Numbered from the stretch's first letter, positions 5,338 through 27,586 are shown. The stretch is 64,000 nucleotides of DNA from a virus (IMGVR_UViG_3300025039_000014:40760-104759), one strand, 5' to 3'. Notes: generated by a model from the letters alone, not told the origin. A program made the numbers and translations.

Positions 5338-5465
5338 AACGAACCCTCTCCAGTGCGACCTAGTTTGCAGACCGGAGAGCACACGGGAAAGGGTTTGAGC
5401 AGGACTATACCGCTAAGGGAGGGTCAGGGGGAAACCCTGACTCTCTCGTAGTCTAGGAGAACACC

Positions 5466-5696
5466 ATGGCAAAGAAATCACTGAATGGCTGGATGCGGCT
5501 GTGGATCGGTATCTCGAGCTTGTGGATCGGCCTATGGGTCGCCTTGGGCATTACCGTCAGCATGACAGCCACAAACCCAAATTTTGACTACACCGACATG
5601 ACACCCACGCTTCTGGTAACCCTCGCTCCACCCGCCGTTCTCTTCGGCCTCGGTCATTTCGTGGCCTGGATTCGCCGCGGCTTCTCTCACGACTGA
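5466..5696 (+). CDS. Small two-TM membrane protein
   Basis: AGGAG RBS; two hydrophobic segments. Confidence 0.7.
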   Translation: MAKKSLNGWMRLWIGISSLWIGLWVALGITVSMTATNPNFDYTDMTPTLLVTLAPPAVLFGLGHFVAWIRRGFSHD

Positions 5697-5893
5697 GATT
5701 CCGCCCACTCTTTTGCCGACAGCCAGGCGTCTTGCGGACGGGACTCTTCGGCGATCTGCTGAGCGTTCGGTAACACCACGGCGTAGAGCGTGCGGCCGTA
5801 TCTCGAGGTCTTGATGCACTTGGTGCCGGCAGGCAACAGCGCCATGGCTTGGTCTTTGTGCGAGGGGGTCGGTTTCTTGTCGAAGGTAATCAT
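5687..5893 (-). CDS. Hypothetical protein
   Basis: 68-aa ORF with AGGA RBS. Confidence 0.6.
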   Translation of the reverse strand: MITFDKKPTPSHKDQAMALLPAGTKCIKTSRYGRTLYAVVLPNAQQIAEESRPQDAWLSAKEWAESQS

Positions 5894-5909
5894 GGCTATT
5901 TCCTAACGC

Positions 5910-6290
5910 TCATCTACAAGATAGCTCTGGGCGACTTTGAACGAACAACATGAAGGCGCTTGGGGCATTGGTAACCGGGCTGATCTGCTCCGATGTCTGG
6001 AGATACTCCCAGAACTGATCAAAGATTCCCTCTATATTGGCGGTAGAACTCATACAGACGGGTAAATCTAGACCTGCGTTGACGTTGTAGAACGAAAAGG
6101 CCTTTTGCATATCCAGCATGCCGCGCACATAGGCTTGGTAGACAATGGGGGACTGAGCATGGAATTGGATTAACCTCCCCACCGTCTGTCCATTCAAATT
6201 TTGAGAATCCGCTGACGCGTCATCTGCCTGAGAAACCGGAGCCATGCATAAGGCTAAGCTGACCAGAACCAATCTTGCAAAAATTCTCAT
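5910..6290 (-). CDS. Secreted protein resembling the Rap1a/Tai immunity family
   Basis: Signal peptide MRIFARLVLVSLALCMAPVSQA; Y-V-x-G-x-x-D, internal Cys and C-terminal Cys pattern. Confidence 0.5.
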   Translation of the reverse strand: MRIFARLVLVSLALCMAPVSQADDASADSQNLNGQTVGRLIQFHAQSPIVYQAYVRGMLDMQKAFSFYNVNAGLDLPVCMSSTANIEGIFDQFWEYLQTSEQISPVTNAPSAFMLFVQSRPELSCR

Positions 6291-6348
6291 CGAAAATCTC
6301 TCCGTGGTTATCATACAAATATCGGCCATCATGACGGTCTCATTAAGC

Positions 6349-6389
6349 AAAAAAATGGCCCTGGCGTCGTAGGGGAGACGGCCAGGGCC
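6349..6389 (-). terminator. Rho-independent terminator (minus strand)
   Basis: TGGCCCTGG...CCAGGGCCA stem followed by T7 on the minus strand. Confidence 0.7.
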
Positions 6390-6491
6390 ACAACCGAGAG
6401 GGTGGGACTCTCGGGTGTTACGCAGGGAACAAGACGAACGAGTGGTGAACTCAAATCCGCCTTGAGAACCGATACTCGCCGAGAGCTAACC

Positions 6492-6511
6492 ATAAGTCAA
6501 TGGTTACTTAC
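6492..6511. promoter_or_regulatory. Palindromic operator-like motif, copy 2
   Basis: ATAAGTCAATGGTTACTTAC. Confidence 0.7.
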
Positions 6512-6872
6512 CCATAAGAATAAAAAACCAGAAACGACAACGCCCGAGGGGTAGTCACGATCTCGTCGGGAAGACCGTTCTATGCCCACGGGCGCTTTGC
6601 AGTATTGGCGTCCTGGCAGAGACGACAAACATGATGGGGATCGGCTTATCGACGAGCACCCCGCCAGGACGCTCCCAGTATAAGCACGCTTTCGAGAGCA
6701 CGCCAAGCGGCGGTGTGACGGGCTTGGACTGATTTTCCTGGTCATGAATCGTCAATCGCTTACAGACCGTGTTAGAGCGGCTCGATCGAGAATCCAGAGA
6801 GAACAGTCGATCGCCGTCGAGGCACGCGAGACACTGTCTCTCGCAGCGCATGAGTCTCTTCGGCTCAGGCTA

Positions 6873-6892
6873 GTAAGTCATTGGTTACTGAC
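6873..6892. promoter_or_regulatory. Palindromic operator-like motif, copy 3 (degenerate)
   Basis: GTAAGTCATTGGTTACTGAC, near TTGACA (6901) and TATAAG. Confidence 0.65.
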
Positions 6893-7023
6893 TAAAGTCA
6901 TTGACAGACAGGCCGTTCTATAAGAACACTAGGAGTTAGAGGCAGTCAGTAAACGCTGATACCGGCCTTCCAATAACGAGTGATTTTCTCTCTCCCGCAG
7001 TCGCAACAATTCGAAGGTGATGT

Positions 7024-7380
7024 ATGGCACTCTCCGCACTGTCGTTCGTTCCCGCCCACAATCGCGACCAGATCGACATGGAATACGTCGAGACCATGGC
7101 GCAGTTCATGGGTATCGATCTCTCCCAGATACGCCAGGACATGAAAGACCGTGCCGAACGTAACCAGGAGCTCCACGAGATCGCCTGGCGGGAACGCGAA
7201 AACCCCAATTGGGAAACGTCGAAAGCCTTTCACCGCTACGAGCAGGTCTTCTCTCATGGCTCGGCACAGGTCTTTTACAACGACTGGTTCGATCGCTATG
7301 CGGTCTATGGGCTCAAGAAAGGCACCCAGGAGCCGAAATCTTTGGAAGAGGCGATACGGCTCGTCTACGAGAACAATTAA
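7024..7380 (+). CDS. Hypothetical protein
   Basis: 118-aa ORF with AAGGTG RBS. Confidence 0.7.
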   Translation: MALSALSFVPAHNRDQIDMEYVETMAQFMGIDLSQIRQDMKDRAERNQELHEIAWRERENPNWETSKAFHRYEQVFSHGSAQVFYNDWFDRYAVYGLKKGTQEPKSLEEAIRLVYENN

Positions 7381-7398
7381 CCCATAGAGGCGAAACTG

Positions 7399-7749
7399 AT
7401 GGCGGTTGGCATGCTGACCATAGAAGACAGCTACGTAGACCATGAGAACGGTGAGGTCTTCCTGTTACTGGTCAGGAAGGATTATCAAGGCGAAATAATT
7501 TCGGTGGACATTGGCGTGGTGGAGAGCGATCGCGATGTTCTGCCGAGAGACCTGGACTTTCTCAAGCCCGATTTGATCTCTCGCTCCGCAAAGCATGGCA
7601 AGAACTGCGTAATGAACCAGTTCTCTGCCATCAAACGGGGCATCCCCTCGCATGAAGCCCTCAAACTCCACGCTCCAAAGAAAATCAGACCATCATGGGC
7701 TCCCAATCTGTCGGATGCTTTGTGGCTACCGAAAAAGCCGGATAGCTGA
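7399..7749 (+). CDS. Hypothetical protein
   Basis: 116-aa ORF with GAGG RBS. Confidence 0.6.
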   Translation: MAVGMLTIEDSYVDHENGEVFLLLVRKDYQGEIISVDIGVVESDRDVLPRDLDFLKPDLISRSAKHGKNCVMNQFSAIKRGIPSHEALKLHAPKKIRPSWAPNLSDALWLPKKPDS

Positions 7750-7810
7750 TTTCGTGAAAGGTTAGCTATCAACACGTAGAGCGCATCGCCGAGATAATGA
7801 CCATAGCCAA

Positions 7811-7879
7811 GGGTCTCTCCCGCTCAGGCTAAGGGTCTCTCTTCGCCAGGCTACCGAGGGGTCTTTTTCTCGCAGGCTA
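7811..7879 (+). repeat. Three 21-bp direct repeats GGGTCT-N8-CAGGCTA (iteron-like)
   Basis: 7811-7831, 7833-7853 and 7859-7879; further copies at about 3009, 3289, 3318 and 6852. Confidence 0.8.
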
Positions 7880-8304
7880 CCAGCACTCACCAAAACGACT
7901 CACCGTGGTGGAAATCTCCCATAAAGCGCCATCTGACGGGTCGACCAGGATCTCACTGTGGTCCTCTCACCGGGGGTGACGTGTCGAACTCGCCCTGCCG
8001 CTCACTGACCTTGAGAGCGTGATTCCCGCCCTACCACTGCCAGTGTCACCCGCTCGCCTGCACACCACGGTCACAGCCACCCAGAATCGCCCCAGGAGCC
8101 ATTCTCCACTCGGAACCGGGCTTGGTGCTGTCTTGCCATGGGGAAAGGGAGACGGGGCTGTCTGGGGCTCGTCTGACCGAGGGTAACGCTGACCAGCACC
8201 AGGATTGACTGCCGGGATGACGAATTGACGGTGATCGCCACGCAACCGACTCACCATGGGGAAAGGGAAACGGGTCCGGTGAGAATCCGGGTGCCACGGT
8301 CACA

Positions 8305-8427
8305 GGGAAAGGCTGGCGATCCACTGCTCTCGGTGAGAACCAAGGTCACTGGGAACGGGAAAGGCTGGCGATCCAACCGGGAACGGGAAAGGCTGGCTTT
8401 GCATTTTTGGGAAAGGCTGGCGATCCA
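8305..8427 (+). repeat. Four direct repeats GGGAAAGGCTGGC(GATCCA)
   Basis: Copies at 8305, 8357, 8385 (partial) and 8409. Confidence 0.85.
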
Positions 8428-8757
8428 TAGACCGTGGTGGATAGCCGTGGTGCGGGGTGCTGCCAGCCGCGATTTTTGGCGGCGGCGACGTTGCCACGAC
8501 GGGTTTTTGCCGCTGGTTACTTTGCCACCCAACGATTTTGTGGCTAACGACTTGGTGATGTTTTCGCCAGCCTGCTAATGATTAGCCACCCAATCGTTTC
8601 TTTGCTGGTCAATCCTCCGGTTCGTTCGCGTCATATCCATTAGCAGCATACGCGTTAATTCTAAGCGTGATTTGCTCGGGGAAATCAATCTTTTTTTGGT
8701 CAAATTCCCTCATAGCGGGAATTTATAGGGTGTTTACGCGTCATAGTTTTATTTGTG

Positions 8758-8786
8758 TTTACGCGTTAACAGTAAATCGATAATCT
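8758..8786 (+). promoter_or_regulatory. Putative sigma70 promoter of the island genes
   Basis: TTTACG-17 bp-TAATCT with an AT-rich upstream tract. Confidence 0.5.
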
Positions 8787-8846
8787 GGATACGTGCTCAA
8801 GACGAAGCACACAAAAAAAAGTCTCTCTCTCATTAAGGAAATCATC

Positions 8847-9479
8847 ATGAAAATCACAGCTAACGATCGCACTATTGCTACTAACTCCAACGAAAAGAAA
8901 GTTTCGTTGTCTGAAAAATTCAATCTTGTCAAGACGCACGTTTCTTCTCTTGCTATCACGTCTAAGCAAACGAAGATTAAGGAGACGCAAAGCGCAATTA
9001 TCGACGCATCCAAAAAGCGCGTCGAGAACTACGAAGCGAAAGCGCAGCGCAACGAAACAGACTATCGCGAATTAACAGTCGAAGTGACTCACGCAAAATA
9101 TAACGCGTCGTTGCTCGACTTGGACGCAAAAGCGATGAAATACACTATCGACAAGAACATCAATCTCGCATCCGCTGTTAATGAGTCGCGCGAATATAAG
9201 AAACGTCTCAAGTCGTTTTTGGAAGCGTGCGCGAACAACGACGCATCCAAACTCGACAAAGCGCTAGCGAAGCTACAAGCGCACATGAAAGCGTCCAGCG
9301 CATCCGCTATCACTGTCGCGCAAGTCGCGACAATCATGGAACACAGCACGACGACGCAAGCGAGCTACTTTAAGAAATTCGCGACAATCCTCGGAGTTGT
9401 ATCGTCCGAACGCTCTAATCAGTCTCCTATGACAATCAATAAAGAAAGCGATGTTTATAAAGACTTCGTTTCACTCTAA
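8847..9479 (+). CDS. Hypothetical protein inside the motif-free island (one Gly, one Pro, no Trp); possible C-terminal winged helix
   Basis: AAGGA RBS then ATG 8847 within ORF 8793..9479. Confidence 0.8.
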   Translation: MKITANDRTIATNSNEKKVSLSEKFNLVKTHVSSLAITSKQTKIKETQSAIIDASKKRVENYEAKAQRNETDYRELTVEVTHAKYNASLLDLDAKAMKYTIDKNINLASAVNESREYKKRLKSFLEACANNDASKLDKALAKLQAHMKASSASAITVAQVATIMEHSTTTQASYFKKFATILGVVSSERSNQSPMTINKESDVYKDFVSL

Positions 9480-9492
9480 TTGATCGACACAT

Positions 9493-9520
9493 AAGCGCAC
9501 TCCTTAGAGTGCGCTTTCTC
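9493..9520 (+). terminator. Hairpin / possible terminator between the island genes
   Basis: AAGCGCACTC-ctta-GAGTGCGCTT-TCTC. Confidence 0.55.
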
Positions 9521-9544
9521 ACTGGATTCCGAGGACAATTCGAC

Positions 9545-9850
9545 ATGATTAAATTCATTATCCGCAATAACACAAAGCGCTTTTACAATGCGCACGCTGT
9601 CGCGCAAGTCGACGCGCAGATGATAAACACTCGCATCGTCTACTTCGTTCGCGCTGGATATATCATCGACACGAAAGCGCATCCATCATGCGCAGACTTT
9701 GAGCGTCAGCACGTCGCAACATATGCGACACGACAGGATGCGGAACACGCAGCGTATGACGCAATTGACGGAATCGCTAACGAAGTCGACTTCGACGTGA
9801 TCGAAGCGTATTTTTATCGCTATCATGTCCAGCAATTCAAAGCAGCGTAG
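9545..9850 (+). CDS. Hypothetical protein inside the motif-free island
   Basis: GAGGA RBS, ATG 9545; both Gly codons are GGA. Confidence 0.7.
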   Translation: MIKFIIRNNTKRFYNAHAVAQVDAQMINTRIVYFVRAGYIIDTKAHPSCADFERQHVATYATRQDAEHAAYDAIDGIANEVDFDVIEAYFYRYHVQQFKAA

Positions 9851-10069
9851 CGCGTCCAGCAGCGCGCAGAGAGCGCGTTAACGTCAATCCGCTGTCATGA
9901 TATGGATTCGATGTTAGCGCGTCTCTGAGGACGAAATAGAGCGATTGAGGATTAGCTAATGAAAGCGAGGACGATGGAGACATTAGGACGACATGAATTA
10001 GCAAAGTCTTAGAAATTCCCGACTTAGTGGCTGGGCATAGCCGCCTCAATTTCCCATTCCCGGCACTCC

Positions 10070-10231
10070 CCTTATACCACCAGGCCCCAGCCCCAGAGCC
10101 CCGCCCTTATACCACCGGCTACGAGTTCCCCGCGTCCCAAGCGTCCCCGCATCCCGAGTCCGACCGCCTGCCGTGAATCACCGAGCCCCATCGCCACCCC
10201 TGACCGACGTGAACCCGTGCCTTATACGACC
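10070..10231 (+). repeat. Three CCTTATAC(C/G)ACC direct repeats in the C-rich right flank of the island
   Basis: 10070-10081, 10105-10116 and 10220-10231. Confidence 0.75.
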
Positions 10232-10304
10232 GCGACCACCCGGCGTTGCCGGCAGTCTCAGCCCGCTCACAAGCCCTGGGCGTTGCCAGGGCTCCAAGTC
10301 GACC

Positions 10305-10751
10305 CTAGCTCCCTTCTCTAACGATCTTTTGAGGCGTAATTCCGCACCAGGTGTTCAAGCCCACCAAGTCTGCAAGCTCTTCTGCCGTCGACTCGCAGGC
10401 TTTCACAGAGGTCGTGGACTTGATCGAAACGTAGCTACCCATGAAGGTGATCGACGTCGGGGTAGCTTTGCTCAAATCTTCGTTCATATCTGGCAGCACG
10501 ACAGCCTCTGTCTTGACGCAGCGAAACTCTGCGTCCGCGTTAGGCCCTTTCACATCGCCAACTACCTCGGAAAGCTTGGTCGCAATCTCGACGCAATAAT
10601 CCTCGTCATCCGCGATTTTATCGCCCTGCAAAACCACGTTGATAGGTGGCGTATCGTCAAAAGCGTGGTGCCCTACTATTGTCCATCGAAAATCGGCAAG
10701 CGCCGTCGATGAAAAGAGCAAGGTGCTCGCGGCGATTAAAAACAACTTCAT
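10305..10751 (-). CDS. Secreted/periplasmic hypothetical protein
   Basis: Signal peptide MKLFLIAASTLLFSSTALA; four Cys. Confidence 0.7.
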   Translation of the reverse strand: MKLFLIAASTLLFSSTALADFRWTIVGHHAFDDTPPINVVLQGDKIADDEDYCVEIATKLSEVVGDVKGPNADAEFRCVKTEAVVLPDMNEDLSKATPTSITFMGSYVSIKSTTSVKACESTAEELADLVGLNTWCGITPQKIVREGS

Positions 10752-10851
10752 GATTTCCCCTTTGTCATGACTCGGCTAATCGGCCGGCACTTCTGTGTTA
10801 TCGGCTGAAACCTAGAATTCTGCTGTTTGCTCGATAGTCCCCCCACGCTGA

Positions 10852-12174
<1,323 letters not shown>

Positions 12175-18659: not shown

Positions 18660-19349
18660 AGTATTGATACAATCGGCAGAAGCTGTGCCAAGCAAATATC
18701 ACTGATACCACCGATAAAACTCATACCACCGAACGCCCACTCGACACCGATATCACCGACTCCCCGCGACTCACACCTGCCGACATGACCGCTATCACCT
18801 GGCTTCACCTCCGCTAAGACCGACTGCACGCGATACCCAGGTTCAAGACCGAGACCACCGAGACAACCGATCGCTGACAGACCGCGCTGAAAGCGCAACG
18901 ACGACGCACTGAACGAACCGACAGTCACCCGGCGCCACGATCACCGATATCACCGCCCTATTCCGACGGCCAAGAGATCCGACCATCCCCAGAATGGTCC
19001 CAGGTGGGAAGCGAGTCCGGTATGTGTCCGCATCATGTTCTGGAAATTCAGGTCGGTCCCGTCCGACAAGGTCAATATCTATCGGCCTCATTGGCACAAA
19101 CTCTCCAGACATAGAGCGCAGTTGGCGCGAAAAATCGTCGTCTGGGAGACGGGGAAGTTGCGCCTTCTCCCTTTGTGCGTTTCTGGCGAAAAATTCTGAG
19201 AGCACAGGATAACGCGAAATAATGCTTTCTAATCAATGCTTTACAGAGAAAACGCAACCCCGCTCATCCGAGGATATTGGGATCAAAAACACCCCTTCAT
19301 CCGAGGCATCCAAATTCTCTCTAAAGTATTGTTTTGAAACGAGAAAAGA

Positions 19350-19387: not shown

Positions 19388-19700
19388 CTCTCAAAACAAG
19401 AACCCCTAAAAACAGAATATTCAGTTTACGCAAAGTTAACGCGTAAACGTAAACGAAAAACCATCTGATATACGCGTAAAAATTCGGCCAGCGCGGGCCG
19501 CCGACCCTGACGACGGGAAACCTCGGAACGGATCGGAACCTGGCGGCGACCACCCGCCCAATGACTCTCTGAAAATCTGATCTTCGTGCCCCTGCTCAAA
19601 TTTGCGTTCTAAGCGACGATATCGCTCCGATCCACCCCGACATACAGGGTAGCTTCGGAAAATCGCTGAGAACGCATCCCTGATCGATTGGGAGCGATTT

Positions 19701-25148: not shown

Positions 25149-25679
25149 ATGAAAGTTCGTATCGTCGATAAAGTCCTCGCCGGCTACACCGGCATGCTCT
25201 ATCAGTTCGAATTCCTCGATGGCGTCAACCTCACCGACCTGACAGATGCTCAGGCGGCGATGATCGGCGCTGTCATGCGTGTCGAGAACGTGGAATCCGG
25301 CCAACAGGTCGGTGCAGGCGTCGACGCGATCAATGCTCGGAACGTGACCCTGTCCGACGCCCAGGCCAAGGAGCAGATCACCGCGGATCAGACCGCAGTG
25401 GATAACGCCTCAGTCATCAAATCCCCCAGTGAGATCGACGACGATGCGACCCATGACAGCGTTGTCGTGATCAACGAAGACACACTCGCGGCAACTACTC
25501 CGGTGGTGACGCTGAGCGAACCGACGGCTGCCGAAGTCTGGACGGCCGATTCTCTGGCCGCTGTCGCAGATGCCAAAGGGATTGCCGGTCTTCGCGCCAT
25601 CGCTGAGCCGAAAGGCATCAAGGGTCGCTCGATCAACGAGCTGATCCGCGAAATCCTCGCGGCCCAAGCGGAGAAGTAA
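25149..25679 (+). CDS. Virion-associated hypothetical protein
   Basis: AGGAG RBS, ATG 25149; C-terminal GIAGLRAIA helical motif. Confidence 0.7.
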   Translation: MKVRIVDKVLAGYTGMLYQFEFLDGVNLTDLTDAQAAMIGAVMRVENVESGQQVGAGVDAINARNVTLSDAQAKEQITADQTAVDNASVIKSPSEIDDDATHDSVVVINEDTLAATTPVVTLSEPTAAEVWTADSLAAVADAKGIAGLRAIAEPKGIKGRSINELIREILAAQAEK

Positions 25680-25682
25680 GCC

Positions 25683-26489
25683 ATGATCATCCGTGACGCC
25701 GGCGATGCTATCACCCTGTCCTTGAGCACAGCCGACTTCGGCACCGTCTCCGAGGTCAACTACCGCATCATCAACGCCTCCGGCGTCACGGTGCAGGAAT
25801 CCGTGGCTGCAACTCTCGATGCCCTGTCCCAGATGGCCGTCGTCGAGATTCCGCAGTCTCTGACCGCCCTGCCCGATGACATGGACCGGATGCTGCTGAT
25901 CGTTCGTTTGGACGTCCTGGGTAGCCAGGGCTCGTTCGTTGACGAACACCTGGTCATGGTCCGTCAGCGCAAGACCCTGGTGATTCCGGCCGAGTCCTTT
26001 CAGACGGTCAACGACGCCATCCTGCGCTCGATGGACATCATCGACATCGACAACTGGCATACAGCCGACGCGGACGCCCGCCGTCTCGCGCTGATCGAAG
26101 CCGGTGCCCGCCTCAAGCGGATTCGCTACCTGGTCTTTGGCGATCGCACCTACGTGCCGATGAACCGGATCACGATCTATCCCGACCTGACCGATGACGA
26201 TGATGACTTCGGCGCACATCTGTTCGAATACATGAATCGAGACCAGTTCCTCGCCCTGCCCCGTTCGTTCCTGCGCGATCTCTACCGCGCCCAGATCATG
26301 GAAGCCGACGTGATCCTGGGACCGGAGACCGCCGAGCAGAAACGTCTGTCCGGGATCATGTCCGATACCGTCGGCGAGACCTCGCAGATGTTCCGCACTG
26401 GTCGCCCGGTCGAGCTGCCGGTTTCCAAGCGGGCATTCCGTGAGATCTGCCGCTGGATCGACAACGTCTGGAGAATTGGTCGTGGATGA
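25683..26489 (+). CDS. Head-tail connector/adaptor-like protein
   Basis: Position; C-terminal GIMSDTVGETS. Confidence 0.65.
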   Translation: MIIRDAGDAITLSLSTADFGTVSEVNYRIINASGVTVQESVAATLDALSQMAVVEIPQSLTALPDDMDRMLLIVRLDVLGSQGSFVDEHLVMVRQRKTLVIPAESFQTVNDAILRSMDIIDIDNWHTADADARRLALIEAGARLKRIRYLVFGDRTYVPMNRITIYPDLTDDDDDFGAHLFEYMNRDQFLALPRSFLRDLYRAQIMEADVILGPETAEQKRLSGIMSDTVGETSQMFRTGRPVELPVSKRAFREICRWIDNVWRIGRG

Positions 26490-27189
26490 TCGCCTGGCGC
26501 TGCACGACAGCTATGCCGAGCAGGCGCGGCAGTTGGAGCAGCACTTCGCGTTCACCGTCACCGGCGTCAAGGAGACGGCTGTGCAACGGGCTCGCCTCAT
26601 GGGTGGGCTCGCTCGCATGATCGACGACGTGCAAAGCGGCCTGAACCTGGCGGCGGACATGCGTCGCAAGGGCTATCGCCAGCTGGTCGACGAGATCACG
26701 TCCAGCTCTCCACGGACAGGCGCCTATTTTGCAGGCAGCTCCTATTCACACGACTTCGACGGGTATTTCAGCTTCGCGGCTGAACTGGCCACGACCCGGC
26801 TTGAGCAGGACGTGAGCAACCGGATCGCGCAAGTCATGCGTGACATTCGTCAAATCGCGCTGATGTCTCGCTCCATGCGCGACAACAGACGCTGGGATCA
26901 ATCCGCAGCGCTCCTACGAGCGCGTGAGAGCGTCGAAAATCGTCTTTCCATATCAGCGGATAGACGCGGACGCGAACAGCGCACAGAGCGCTTTTCTGCG
27001 CTGCTGGTGCGAGGTCTGTCCGTGGGAATGATGGTTGACTCGACAGTGCTGCACGGGGCGACCGATCGCTACAAGCTGTTCAGCTACGACGCCGATGACC
27101 TGGGTGAACTGACTGCCGCCGAGTTCCAGGAGCGCCGGGAAGAGATTTTCCATCCACAGAGCCGTCGATTTCTTGTGCCCATATCGTAA
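26482..27189 (+). CDS. Head morphogenesis-like hypothetical protein
   Basis: ORF 26440..27189, probable GTG start; C-terminal IFHPQSR. Confidence 0.55.
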   Translation: MDDRLALHDSYAEQARQLEQHFAFTVTGVKETAVQRARLMGGLARMIDDVQSGLNLAADMRRKGYRQLVDEITSSSPRTGAYFAGSSYSHDFDGYFSFAAELATTRLEQDVSNRIAQVMRDIRQIALMSRSMRDNRRWDQSAALLRARESVENRLSISADRRGREQRTERFSALLVRGLSVGMMVDSTVLHGATDRYKLFSYDADDLGELTAAEFQERREEIFHPQSRRFLVPIS

Positions 27190-27205
27190 GTAAGTGCTTA
27201 CTTAC
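27186..27205. promoter_or_regulatory. Palindromic operator-like motif, copy 8
   Basis: GTAAGTAAGTGCTTACTTAC followed by TAGAAT at 27220. Confidence 0.85.
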
Positions 27206-27223
27206 AAGGTCTCAGAGGGTAGA

Positions 27224-27586
27224 ATGACCATGTTTCGAGCCAACACGATGTGTCAGTTGCAGGCGAGAGCGGGTTTCGACGAATACGGCGATCCGCAGTT
27301 TGGTCCGTCAAAACGAATCAAGTGCTCCGTGGTTCGTCTGGCTAGATCGAGCGCTCCCTCTTCGGTTCGAGCGGACAGCTCAGGGTCACGCGGCAAGGCG
27401 GATCAGATGGAGTCCGACGCCGTTATCCTGATGCCGCCTTCCTGGGAGCCCTCGATGGGGGCAAAGGTCGCGATCCTCGGGATGACCCTCGAGATCGTCG
27501 GTATGCATCCGCGGCTCAACATCATGGGGCGCCTGGATCACTACGAGGTGAGTCTGAACGCATGGCCATCAGCGTCAAGGGCATAG
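27224..27586 (+). CDS. Head-tail joining (stopper-like) protein
   Basis: DEYGDP motif; position. Confidence 0.65.
   Translation: MTMFRANTMCQLQARAGFDEYGDPQFGPSKRIKCSVVRLARSSAPSSVRADSSGSRGKADQMESDAVILMPPSWEPSMGAKVAILGMTLEIVGMHPRLNIMGRLDHYEVSLNAWPSASRA

Follow-up and report, generated by a model that had tools for sequence, protein, structure and literature searches.

A two-gene island cleared of GGB/VCC words at the probable genome end of an SSU5-type phage-plasmid

A 1.3-kb island in the DNA of a probable phage-plasmid is completely free of the trinucleotides GGC, GGG, GGT, GCC, CCC and ACC (GGB/VCC), and it owes this neither to chance nor to hypermutation but to selection. The island (8730-10017, assigned to neither strand) lies in a window of 64,000 nt, the whole stretch analysed here (IMGVR_UViG_3300025039_000014:40760-104759). 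Trinucleotide counts give zero for all six words, and 19 for GGA and 16 for TCC. An earlier note on this DNA had described a site-free island at 8732-10017 with about 35 GGA/TCC, and had put the number of sites expected by chance at roughly 100. The counts agree with this description, and the expectation computed from the island's own base composition is 97.6-100, or 138 at the genome rate of 107 per kb. Do similar deserts occur elsewhere by chance, which the note had named as a possible refutation? The GGB/VCC-free gap is 1289 nt long, and the runner-up across the full 104,759-bp genome (G000) is only 112 nt. What is new here is the strictness of the third-base rule, in that GGA/TCC is tolerated at its full expected frequency (35 observed versus 36.2 expected, O/E 0.97) while GGC, GGG and GGT are absent. 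Every one of the 35 GG/CC left in the island is GGA/TCC, for which the chance is about 5e-17 given 19 GG and 16 CC. No other word was found to be comparably missing from the island.

The ban is symmetric between the strands and covers coding and non-coding DNA alike, as the note had maintained. The island's 349 nt of non-coding DNA contain no GGB/VCC where 25.4 are expected, and the words are also missing across codon junctions. When the two genes were resampled with synonymous codons (500 trials, genome codon usage), ORF1 acquired 48±5 sites, with a minimum of 33, and ORF2 acquired 25±4, with a minimum of 13; the observed number is 0 for both. The codons GCC, ACC, GGC and CCG, which are commonest elsewhere in the genome, are unused in the island, where GCG, ACG, GCA and similar codons are substituted for them, and CGC/GCG is enriched 3.4-fold. 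The note's statements about the unused GCC and ACC codons and about plentiful CG and GC steps (131 and 105, respectively) are thus borne out. Since GCC and ACC are replaced by GCG and ACG, a C-to-G change at the third position, and not by deamination products, selection and not mutation is indicated. GGB has VCC as its reverse complement, and the tolerated GGA likewise has the tolerated TCC; the rule must therefore act on the DNA duplex, or on each of its strands singly, and a rule at the level of one RNA is ruled out. Two further ideas were discarded, namely general restriction-site avoidance, as GCGC, ACGCGT, TCGCGA and similar words are abundant, and a synthetic or foreign origin of the DNA, as the cassette is syntenic with natural relatives. 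The borders are abrupt, as had been claimed, and both flanks are among the window's densest GGB/VCC stretches; counted on the + strand, the left one has 11-14 GGB and the right one 14-22 VCC in 100 nt. The note had postulated strong selection against a three-nucleotide duplex word, and this view holds, given the symmetry, the presence of the ban in non-coding DNA and at codon junctions, and its recurrence in distant orthologous cassettes.

What kind of element carries the island? The window comes from an IMG/VR virus record of 104,759 bp and 95% completeness, G000. Its terminase-capsid block (terL/MCP) shares 66-67% DNA identity with Salmonella phage SSU5, Yersinia pMT1 and Pseudomonas phage nickie, and TerL, compared as protein, is 57-66% identical. 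The genome encodes CobST-like genes, Pol III alpha, RecA, SbcCD, RNR, ThyA, DnaB/DnaG and ligase, which is the SSU5 gene set, and a ThyA-like gene adjoins a MazG-like gene. Upstream of terS there is a helicase gene and then a divergent ParB-ParB-ABC ATPase operon, an arrangement common to SSU5. The conserved terminase-portal-capsid block, the size class of about 100-120 kb (here 104.8 kb) and the shared gene set indicate that the element is, as judged from its sequence, an SSU5-type phage-plasmid of the Halomonas type. No RepA/ParA plasmid maintenance genes were recognised among about 50 larger ORFs of G000, a 95%-complete fragment that is cut inside a gene. The GC skew of the genome gave no origin or terminus signal, and a blastn search with the island DNA against phage and plasmid collections gave no match.

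Read from left to right, the island has the organisation of a small transcription unit set between repeat arrays. The left flank (8100-8560, + strand) is made of G-rich repeats, four copies of GGGAAAGGCTGGCGATCCA (8305-8427) and two of CCATGGGGAAAGGGA, and the GGGAAAGGCT core of these repeats is kept at the corresponding locus, L002, of a sister genome, G001. Motif counting identified a palindrome, AAATTCCC-N7-GGGAATTT, at the left border (8702-8725, no strand). AAATTCCC occurs three times in the whole genome, each time at an island border, and this box is also found to the left of the islands of nickie and RHph_Y2_11. The island itself comprises a putative promoter, two ORFs, a putative terminator and 3' untranslated DNA. 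The promoter-like region, read from the sequence, spans 8733-8786 on the + strand and contains two copies of TTTACGCGT, at 8733 and 8758. A candidate promoter, again by reading, has a -35 element TTTACG (8758-8763), a 17-nt spacer and a -10 element TAATCT (8781-8786); a generic sigma-70 scan did not list it. A second region built alike is found at 19420-19490 (- strand). ORF1 (8847-9479, + strand) encodes 210 residues and is followed by a terminator-like hairpin, GCGCACTC/GAGTGCGC and then TTTCT (9495-9519, + strand), likewise read from the sequence and not listed by a generic terminator scan; a matching hairpin lies at the equivalent place in G001. ORF2 (9545-9850, + strand; 101 residues) is an orphan, its sole match being itself, and it has no homology to the second ORFs of L002 and L003 or of nickie and ZY21. 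The untranslated tail (9920-9995, + strand) is rich in GGA, with six in 100 nt and no TCC, and there is GGA enrichment at the matching place in the metagenome relative L003. A conserved border box, GCAAAGTCTTAGAA, overlaps AAATTCCC at 10001-10020 (+ strand) and is predicted, from homology, to mark the terminal-repeat boundary or a genome terminus. The right flank (10018-10300, + strand) is a C-rich array of three CCCTTATAC(C/G)ACC (CCCTTATACCACC) repeats, at 10071, 10106 and 10221, and the CCCTTATACCACC repeat is kept in G001, nickie and ZY21. An Rfam scan of 7500-11000 gave no match.

ORF1 belongs to a family without an assigned function. The composition of its product, one Gly, one Pro and no Trp in 210 residues, is as the note had given it. 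Homologue and structure searches were made with this protein. There are 22 homologues, the named ones being from Halomonas/Vreelandella, with the closest 79-86% identical, and homologues in Nickievirus phages of P. syringae show 28-35% identity. The structure model (pLDDT 88.6) predicts a helical bundle and a winged-helix-like C-terminal part. Structural matches of ORF1 were weak and of winged-helix or three-helix-bundle type: Foldseek searches of PDB and BFVD gave MarR, MotA, RepL and ArsR-type domains, all with E > 0.1, and a VIA wide search with residues 7-109 returned helical bundles only, with no convincing fold relative. Pfam and PHROGs gave no match for ORF1 or ORF2, and a protein atlas search with ORF1 returned only clusters without names. 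A PADLOC assignment of ORF1 as REase_II (15.9 bits) was judged to be due to chance, the matched part being an all-helical bundle. Is there a normally encoded paralogue of ORF1? When six-frame ORFs from G000, G001, nickie, RHph and SSU5 were searched with an HMM of the ORF1 family, the island gene was the only match. Neither the protein of the Rhizobium island nor SSU5_120 has sequence or profile homology to ORF1.

The ban is conserved in relatives, and in a stricter form. The orthologous stretch of nickie has a 1276-nt gap without GGB/VCC, of which 1137 nt lack any GG/CC. The island of Pseudomonas phage ZY21 shows gaps of 1155 and 1108 nt, and GG/CC-free islands are present in Rhizobium phages that belong to the same superfamily, RHph_Y2_11 (888+164 nt), RHph_N1_15 (1150+154 nt) and B1VFA (851 nt). 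Each of these five genomes has one island, and the proteins of these strict islands contain no Gly, Pro or Trp at all. The metagenome relatives L003 and L004 (ORF1 identity 52-53%) have the GGA/TCC-tolerant form, as in the window. GGB/VCC is therefore a clade-specific version of a GG/CC ban in the wider family, as the islands of the relatives exclude GG/CC altogether, and the ban persists across lineages with just 28-35% protein identity. The orthologous regions, to which the note had looked for a possible refutation, thus keep the depletion in nickie, ZY21, RHph_Y2_11, RHph_N1_15, B1VFA, L003 and L004, and it is relaxed in G001. This 106-kb sister has an intact ORF1 (53% identical) and yet about 53 GGB/VCC in its cassette, and so the pressure is graded across the family and not universal. 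Even so, the O/E of the G001 cassette, 0.43-0.48, is the lowest of any window in that genome. A Klebsiella relative has an O/E of 0.59 and a Stenotrophomonas relative one of 0.85; SSU5 is undepleted. In H. sulfidaeris there is a decayed copy on the chromosome.

A box, TCRAAGTCTTAGA, adjoins the island in every genome that has an island, in constant orientation and 8-12 kb upstream of terL. The box is kept in Pseudomonas, Rhizobium, Stenotrophomonas and Klebsiella relatives, including genomes without an island. The orientation of the genes relative to the box varies among clades. The island genes of the Rhizobium phages occupy the opposite strand and have their promoter beside the box, and the roughly 150 nt from promoter to box carry a few GG, the transcription unit itself being GG-free. 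It follows from the placement of these few GG that the ban tracks the transcription unit.

For two of the Rhizobium phages the genome ends have been studied. B1VFA has fixed termini and, by PhageTerm, a direct terminal repeat of 3,605 bp (Gunathilake et al., PMC12509600), and its 95%-identical sister V1VFA-S has one of 3,939 bp (PMC12509600). We placed the repeat boundary, for this one Rhizobium pair, by a genome-wide map of B1VFA coordinates on V1VFA-S together with the published repeat lengths. A V1VFA-S counterpart of 3,939±3 nt exists only for those 3,605-nt stretches of B1VFA whose end falls at -12 to +166 nt relative to the box, and an indel of 332 nt at the left edge of the island explains the 334-nt difference in repeat length. 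This mapping and the published lengths make the B1VFA box the right boundary of the terminal repeat, and the B1VFA island is then the last 0.85 kb of the repeat, at the physical end of the genome. A search for a second copy of the box, at the opposite boundary of the B1VFA repeat, was negative. A Nickievirus terminase, on the other hand, has been grouped with those of 3'-cos phages (PMC8537276). By homology of box and flanks, the island of the window probably occupies the same terminal position.

What might impose such a ban? Our best explanation, offered tentatively though it could well be correct, is that an early transcription unit at the genome terminus is kept free of a short word that is read by a DNA-acting factor. 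On this view the SSU5-type phage-plasmid has a long terminal repeat, and the island, running from promoter through 3' tail, would be a self-contained early unit within it, at the inner edge of the genome terminus. Purifying selection would clear the word from the duplex of the unit because a sequence-reading factor is active while the unit must work, the word being GGB/VCC for the Halomonas-type clade and any GG/CC for the Pseudomonas and Rhizobium relatives. The likeliest factor would be a DNA-cutting or transcription-blocking activity directed at host and other resident DNA in the first minutes of infection, comparable to the pre-early stage of T5. The word-rich rest of the phage genome would at that time be not yet in the cell, or would be protected otherwise. 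The early timing and the nature of the reader are what we infer. One clade takes account of the third base and others disregard it, so the reader is better imagined as a protein with evolving specificity than as a physical property of DNA. The remainder of the presumed terminal repeat is rich in the GGB/VCC word, so the early-unit reading fits only if the unit alone needs protection. Also against this reading stand the relaxed cassette of G001, the gene orientation that varies among clades with respect to the box, and the grouping of a Nickievirus terminase with those of 3'-cos phages. One of two options in the note, that the island is first-injected or otherwise unprotected DNA, gains indirect support as to the terminal position, since the island adjoins the box that maps to the B1VFA terminal-repeat boundary (PMC12509600), the position in the window being assigned by homology. 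We favour this option over that of DNA modification.

A bolder version, which we put forward with more reserve, is that SSU5-type phages or their hosts deploy an undescribed reader of 2-3 nt of DNA, with the core GG/CC, that, as infection begins, cuts, marks or blocks nearly all the DNA present in the cell. A reduced alphabet would let the terminal early unit escape, and the third-base specificity would evolve, so that in the Halomonas clade GGA would be invisible and GGC, GGG and GGT fatal. Among the genes of G000 we found no candidate reader, nuclease or writer. Phyletic profiling of genomes with islands (G000, nickie, RHph) and without (G001, SSU5) found no gene that tracks with the islands, and a literature search for this phenomenon found no description.

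Other explanations must be weighed against a protected early unit, and the position of the island suggests one of them. GG/CC might have to be excluded from the last kilobase by the terminus for a cis-acting reason, for example because packaging has to terminate there, the repeat to be duplicated, the DNA to be ejected or the genome to be circularised by way of RecBCD; the G-rich arrays would then serve as Chi-like sites. The island does always adjoin the conserved box or terminus, and both flanks of the islands in the window, nickie and ZY21 have their G-rich strand running 5' to 3' towards the island, which is the orientation needed by Chi for an enzyme entering at a break there. This flank polarity, however, is not kept in the Rhizobium phages, and the Stenotrophomonas and Klebsiella relatives have the box but no island. 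The ban, moreover, follows the transcription unit and not distance from the box, RHph_Y2_11 having GG between promoter and box, and the tolerance of GGA is better explained by a sequence reader than by a physical property. We regard a cis-acting role as rather unlikely. The other option of the note was that the phage marks its own DNA at GGB/VCC, and that the cassette must stay readable by host RNA polymerase or terminase; more broadly, it would have to remain unmarked for some protein that reads it. GG words occupy about 10% of positions, a level comparable with known partial base replacements, and the neighbouring ThyA-like and MazG-like genes would suit such a system. Marks at short words do exist, as in phage iggy, where dPreQ0 is placed at a strict GA motif (PMC10484667). 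Yet G000 lacks matches to TGT/DpdA (PF01702), C5-methylase (PF00145) and N4/N6-methylase (PF01555) profiles, all of which gave matches in control genomes, the ParB-ParB-ABC cluster, a candidate writer, is equally present in the island-less SSU5 and G001, and the five genomes profiled offer no co-varying partner gene. The modification option thus finds no support here and is in our opinion unlikely.

Could ORF1 itself be the reader? A winged-helix protein that shut off the host by binding at GG words and coating or silencing the DNA would require its own unit to lack sites. The predicted helical structure of ORF1, with a winged-helix-like C-terminal part, would agree with this, the tolerated word changes along with the ORF1 clade, and the flanks are arrays of GG-rich repeats. 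Against it, the sister G001 has an intact ORF1 in a relaxed cassette, the structural matches of ORF1 are weak, and the window's ORF2 has no relative in other islands, so that the ban is independent of one fixed gene set; self-avoidance by ORF1 is distinctly improbable. It might also be asked whether the island is a shield against CRISPR. CC is the PAM of type I-F systems, and free phage ends bounded by Chi reportedly proved to be hot spots of spacer uptake in work by Levy in 2015 and by Modell in 2017. A first-entering end without CC/GG PAMs and with Chi-like bounds would give no usable spacers and make early targeting impossible, and the mapping in B1VFA and V1VFA-S supports the terminal position. 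But TCC contains the CC PAM and is nevertheless tolerated in its expected number, the phage would still be killed if other parts of its genome were targeted, and the trait is also present in phages of Rhizobium and P. syringae, hosts that to our knowledge are not noted for type I-F systems. We consider such a shield very improbable. There is finally the thought that a context-specific deaminase, or other hypermutation, erased GG/CC, as the total loss of one dinucleotide context resembles editing footprints, for example that of APOBEC3G (GG to AG). This is barely credible, as both ORFs are intact, the replacements are mostly synonymous, deamination products are not enriched, and the trait is stable across lineages whose proteins have diverged as far as those of the Nickievirus phages.

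If the early-unit explanation is true, the islands record the action of a DNA reader whose specificity is the shortest yet found to have shaped a genome, under a pressure strong enough for whole proteins to be built without Gly, Pro and Trp. There would then be a concrete answer to an old question raised by T5, namely how the DNA that is first in a cell outlasts the destruction of other DNA. As the word allowed in this clade, GGA provides a genetic handle, in that an added GGC should hurt and an added GGA should not; this contrast makes the hypothesis directly testable and should aid in finding the reader. The islands also represent natural functional proteins written in an amino-acid alphabet of 17-18 letters.

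How does the island compare with known systems? The chlorovirus nickase Nt.CviPII reads CCD. The DpdA of phage iggy has a strict GA motif (PMC10484667). Viral DNA enzymes with words of 2-3 nt thus exist, including one with a degenerate third base. The words differ, however, CCD sites (TCCA, TCCG, TCCT) being present in the island, and neither enzyme has a homologue that could be found here, the result for DpdA being that of the TGT/DpdA profile. There is also a likeness to the avoidance of restriction sites and CRISPR PAMs, where selection removes a short duplex word from both strands. The known cases, however, are genome-wide and statistical, and concern sites of 4-8 nt or the PAMs of an identified system, whereas here the avoidance is local and complete.

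The leading end of T7 is a second point of reference. About 850 bp of T7 DNA enters first, and Ocr is made before the type I sites enter. Here too a promoter-bearing unit would lie at the entering end and its product would act before the remaining genome is exposed. The unit of the Rhizobium relatives is oriented inward, away from the end as in T7; that of the window and of nickie is oriented towards the end, unlike T7, and an Ocr-like protein is absent here. We know of no transcription-driven DNA entry in the SSU5-type group.

The closest parallel may be T5. The first-step-transfer (pre-early) DNA of T5 and BF23 is said, in work of 1979 by Davison and Brunel, to lie in a long terminal repeat without EcoRI sites. 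Here also an early gene block, as we propose it to be, would lie inside a long direct terminal repeat, and the avoidance of the motif is limited to the block, the motif being present in the rest of the genome; in our case the parallel holds at the level of the motif, with a hypothetical nuclease. The repeat-rich DNA beside the island recalls the injection stop signal of T5. Two-step DNA transfer, a feature of T5, is not known for the SSU5-type phages. The repeat is 3.6-3.9 kb in B1VFA and V1VFA-S versus about 10 kb in T5, and is word-free in its last third only. The avoided word has 2-3 nt here versus 6 nt in T5, and the ban here is absolute and has reshaped the proteins, which contain no or almost no Gly, Pro and Trp.

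The putative promoter of the GGB/VCC-free cassette has a twin on the minus strand of the window at 19420-19490, where two copies of TTTACGCGT are followed by GTTTACGCGTTAAC and then by TAAACT. This twin, directly upstream of terS, is directed leftwards, to the ORF at 18843-19205, and one shared regulator may control both the island unit and the twin-promoter unit. A motif count over the whole genome placed a palindrome, GTAAGT-N8-ACTTAC, at about 15 gene boundaries (in the window, for example, at 1375, 12241, 14956, 21589, 25076, 27186, 28928, 33956, 42920 and 48010). There is none in the window's island; in G001, the 106-kb sister element, the palindrome is also found on the flanks of the cassette. 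A global repressor probably uses GTAAGT-N8-ACTTAC as its operator.

Near the conserved border box, comparison of the Rhizobium phages B1VFA and V1VFA-S (locus L053) revealed large indels to either side of the terminal repeat: relative to V1VFA-S, B1VFA is longer by 1386 nt at about 5-6 kb to the left of the box, and by 806 nt from 166 nt to its right. The borders of the terminal repeat may be hot spots of gene gain and loss. In the window, a full-length seryl-tRNA synthetase gene (10891-12174, plus strand) lies immediately rightward of the predicted terminus, and in a gene-content comparison G001, nickie, RHph_Y2_11 and SSU5 all lacked a counterpart; seryl-tRNA synthetase is an unusual cargo for a phage-plasmid. 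A copy of the cassette itself resides on the chromosome of Halomonas sulfidaeris (AP019514.1, L001:7600-9000), with a fragmented ORF1 and numerous GGB/VCC sites, and is probably a decaying remnant that illustrates the fate of the cassette after selection ends.

Elsewhere, the genome (the whole record, G000) encodes a DNA polymerase III alpha subunit of 1109 aa (G000 5454-8783, L010:5454-8783) with a uracil-DNA-glycosylase-superfamily domain at its C-terminal end, residues 958-1055. A MazG-like pyrophosphohydrolase gene adjoins that of a thymidylate-synthase-family protein (G000 25478-27548, L011:5478-7548), a pair also present in SSU5; the latter protein is unusually long at 384 aa, with two matched stretches.

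The strict GG/CC-free islands of nickie (L013:6998-7429) and ZY21 (L014:4824-5255) both hold, on the minus strand opposite ORF1, a long antisense ORF of 143 aa that is 65% identical between the two phages, and that may result from nothing more than the reduced alphabet.

At its 3' end, the window's island has a tail (9920-9995) with GAGGAC/GAGGAT repeats, six GGA in 100 nt and no TCC, and the same GGA enrichment without TCC recurs in the tail of L003, a metagenome relative. An Rfam scan of window 7500-11000 gave no match to the tail; in sequence, it resembles the GGA clusters bound by CsrA/RsmA.
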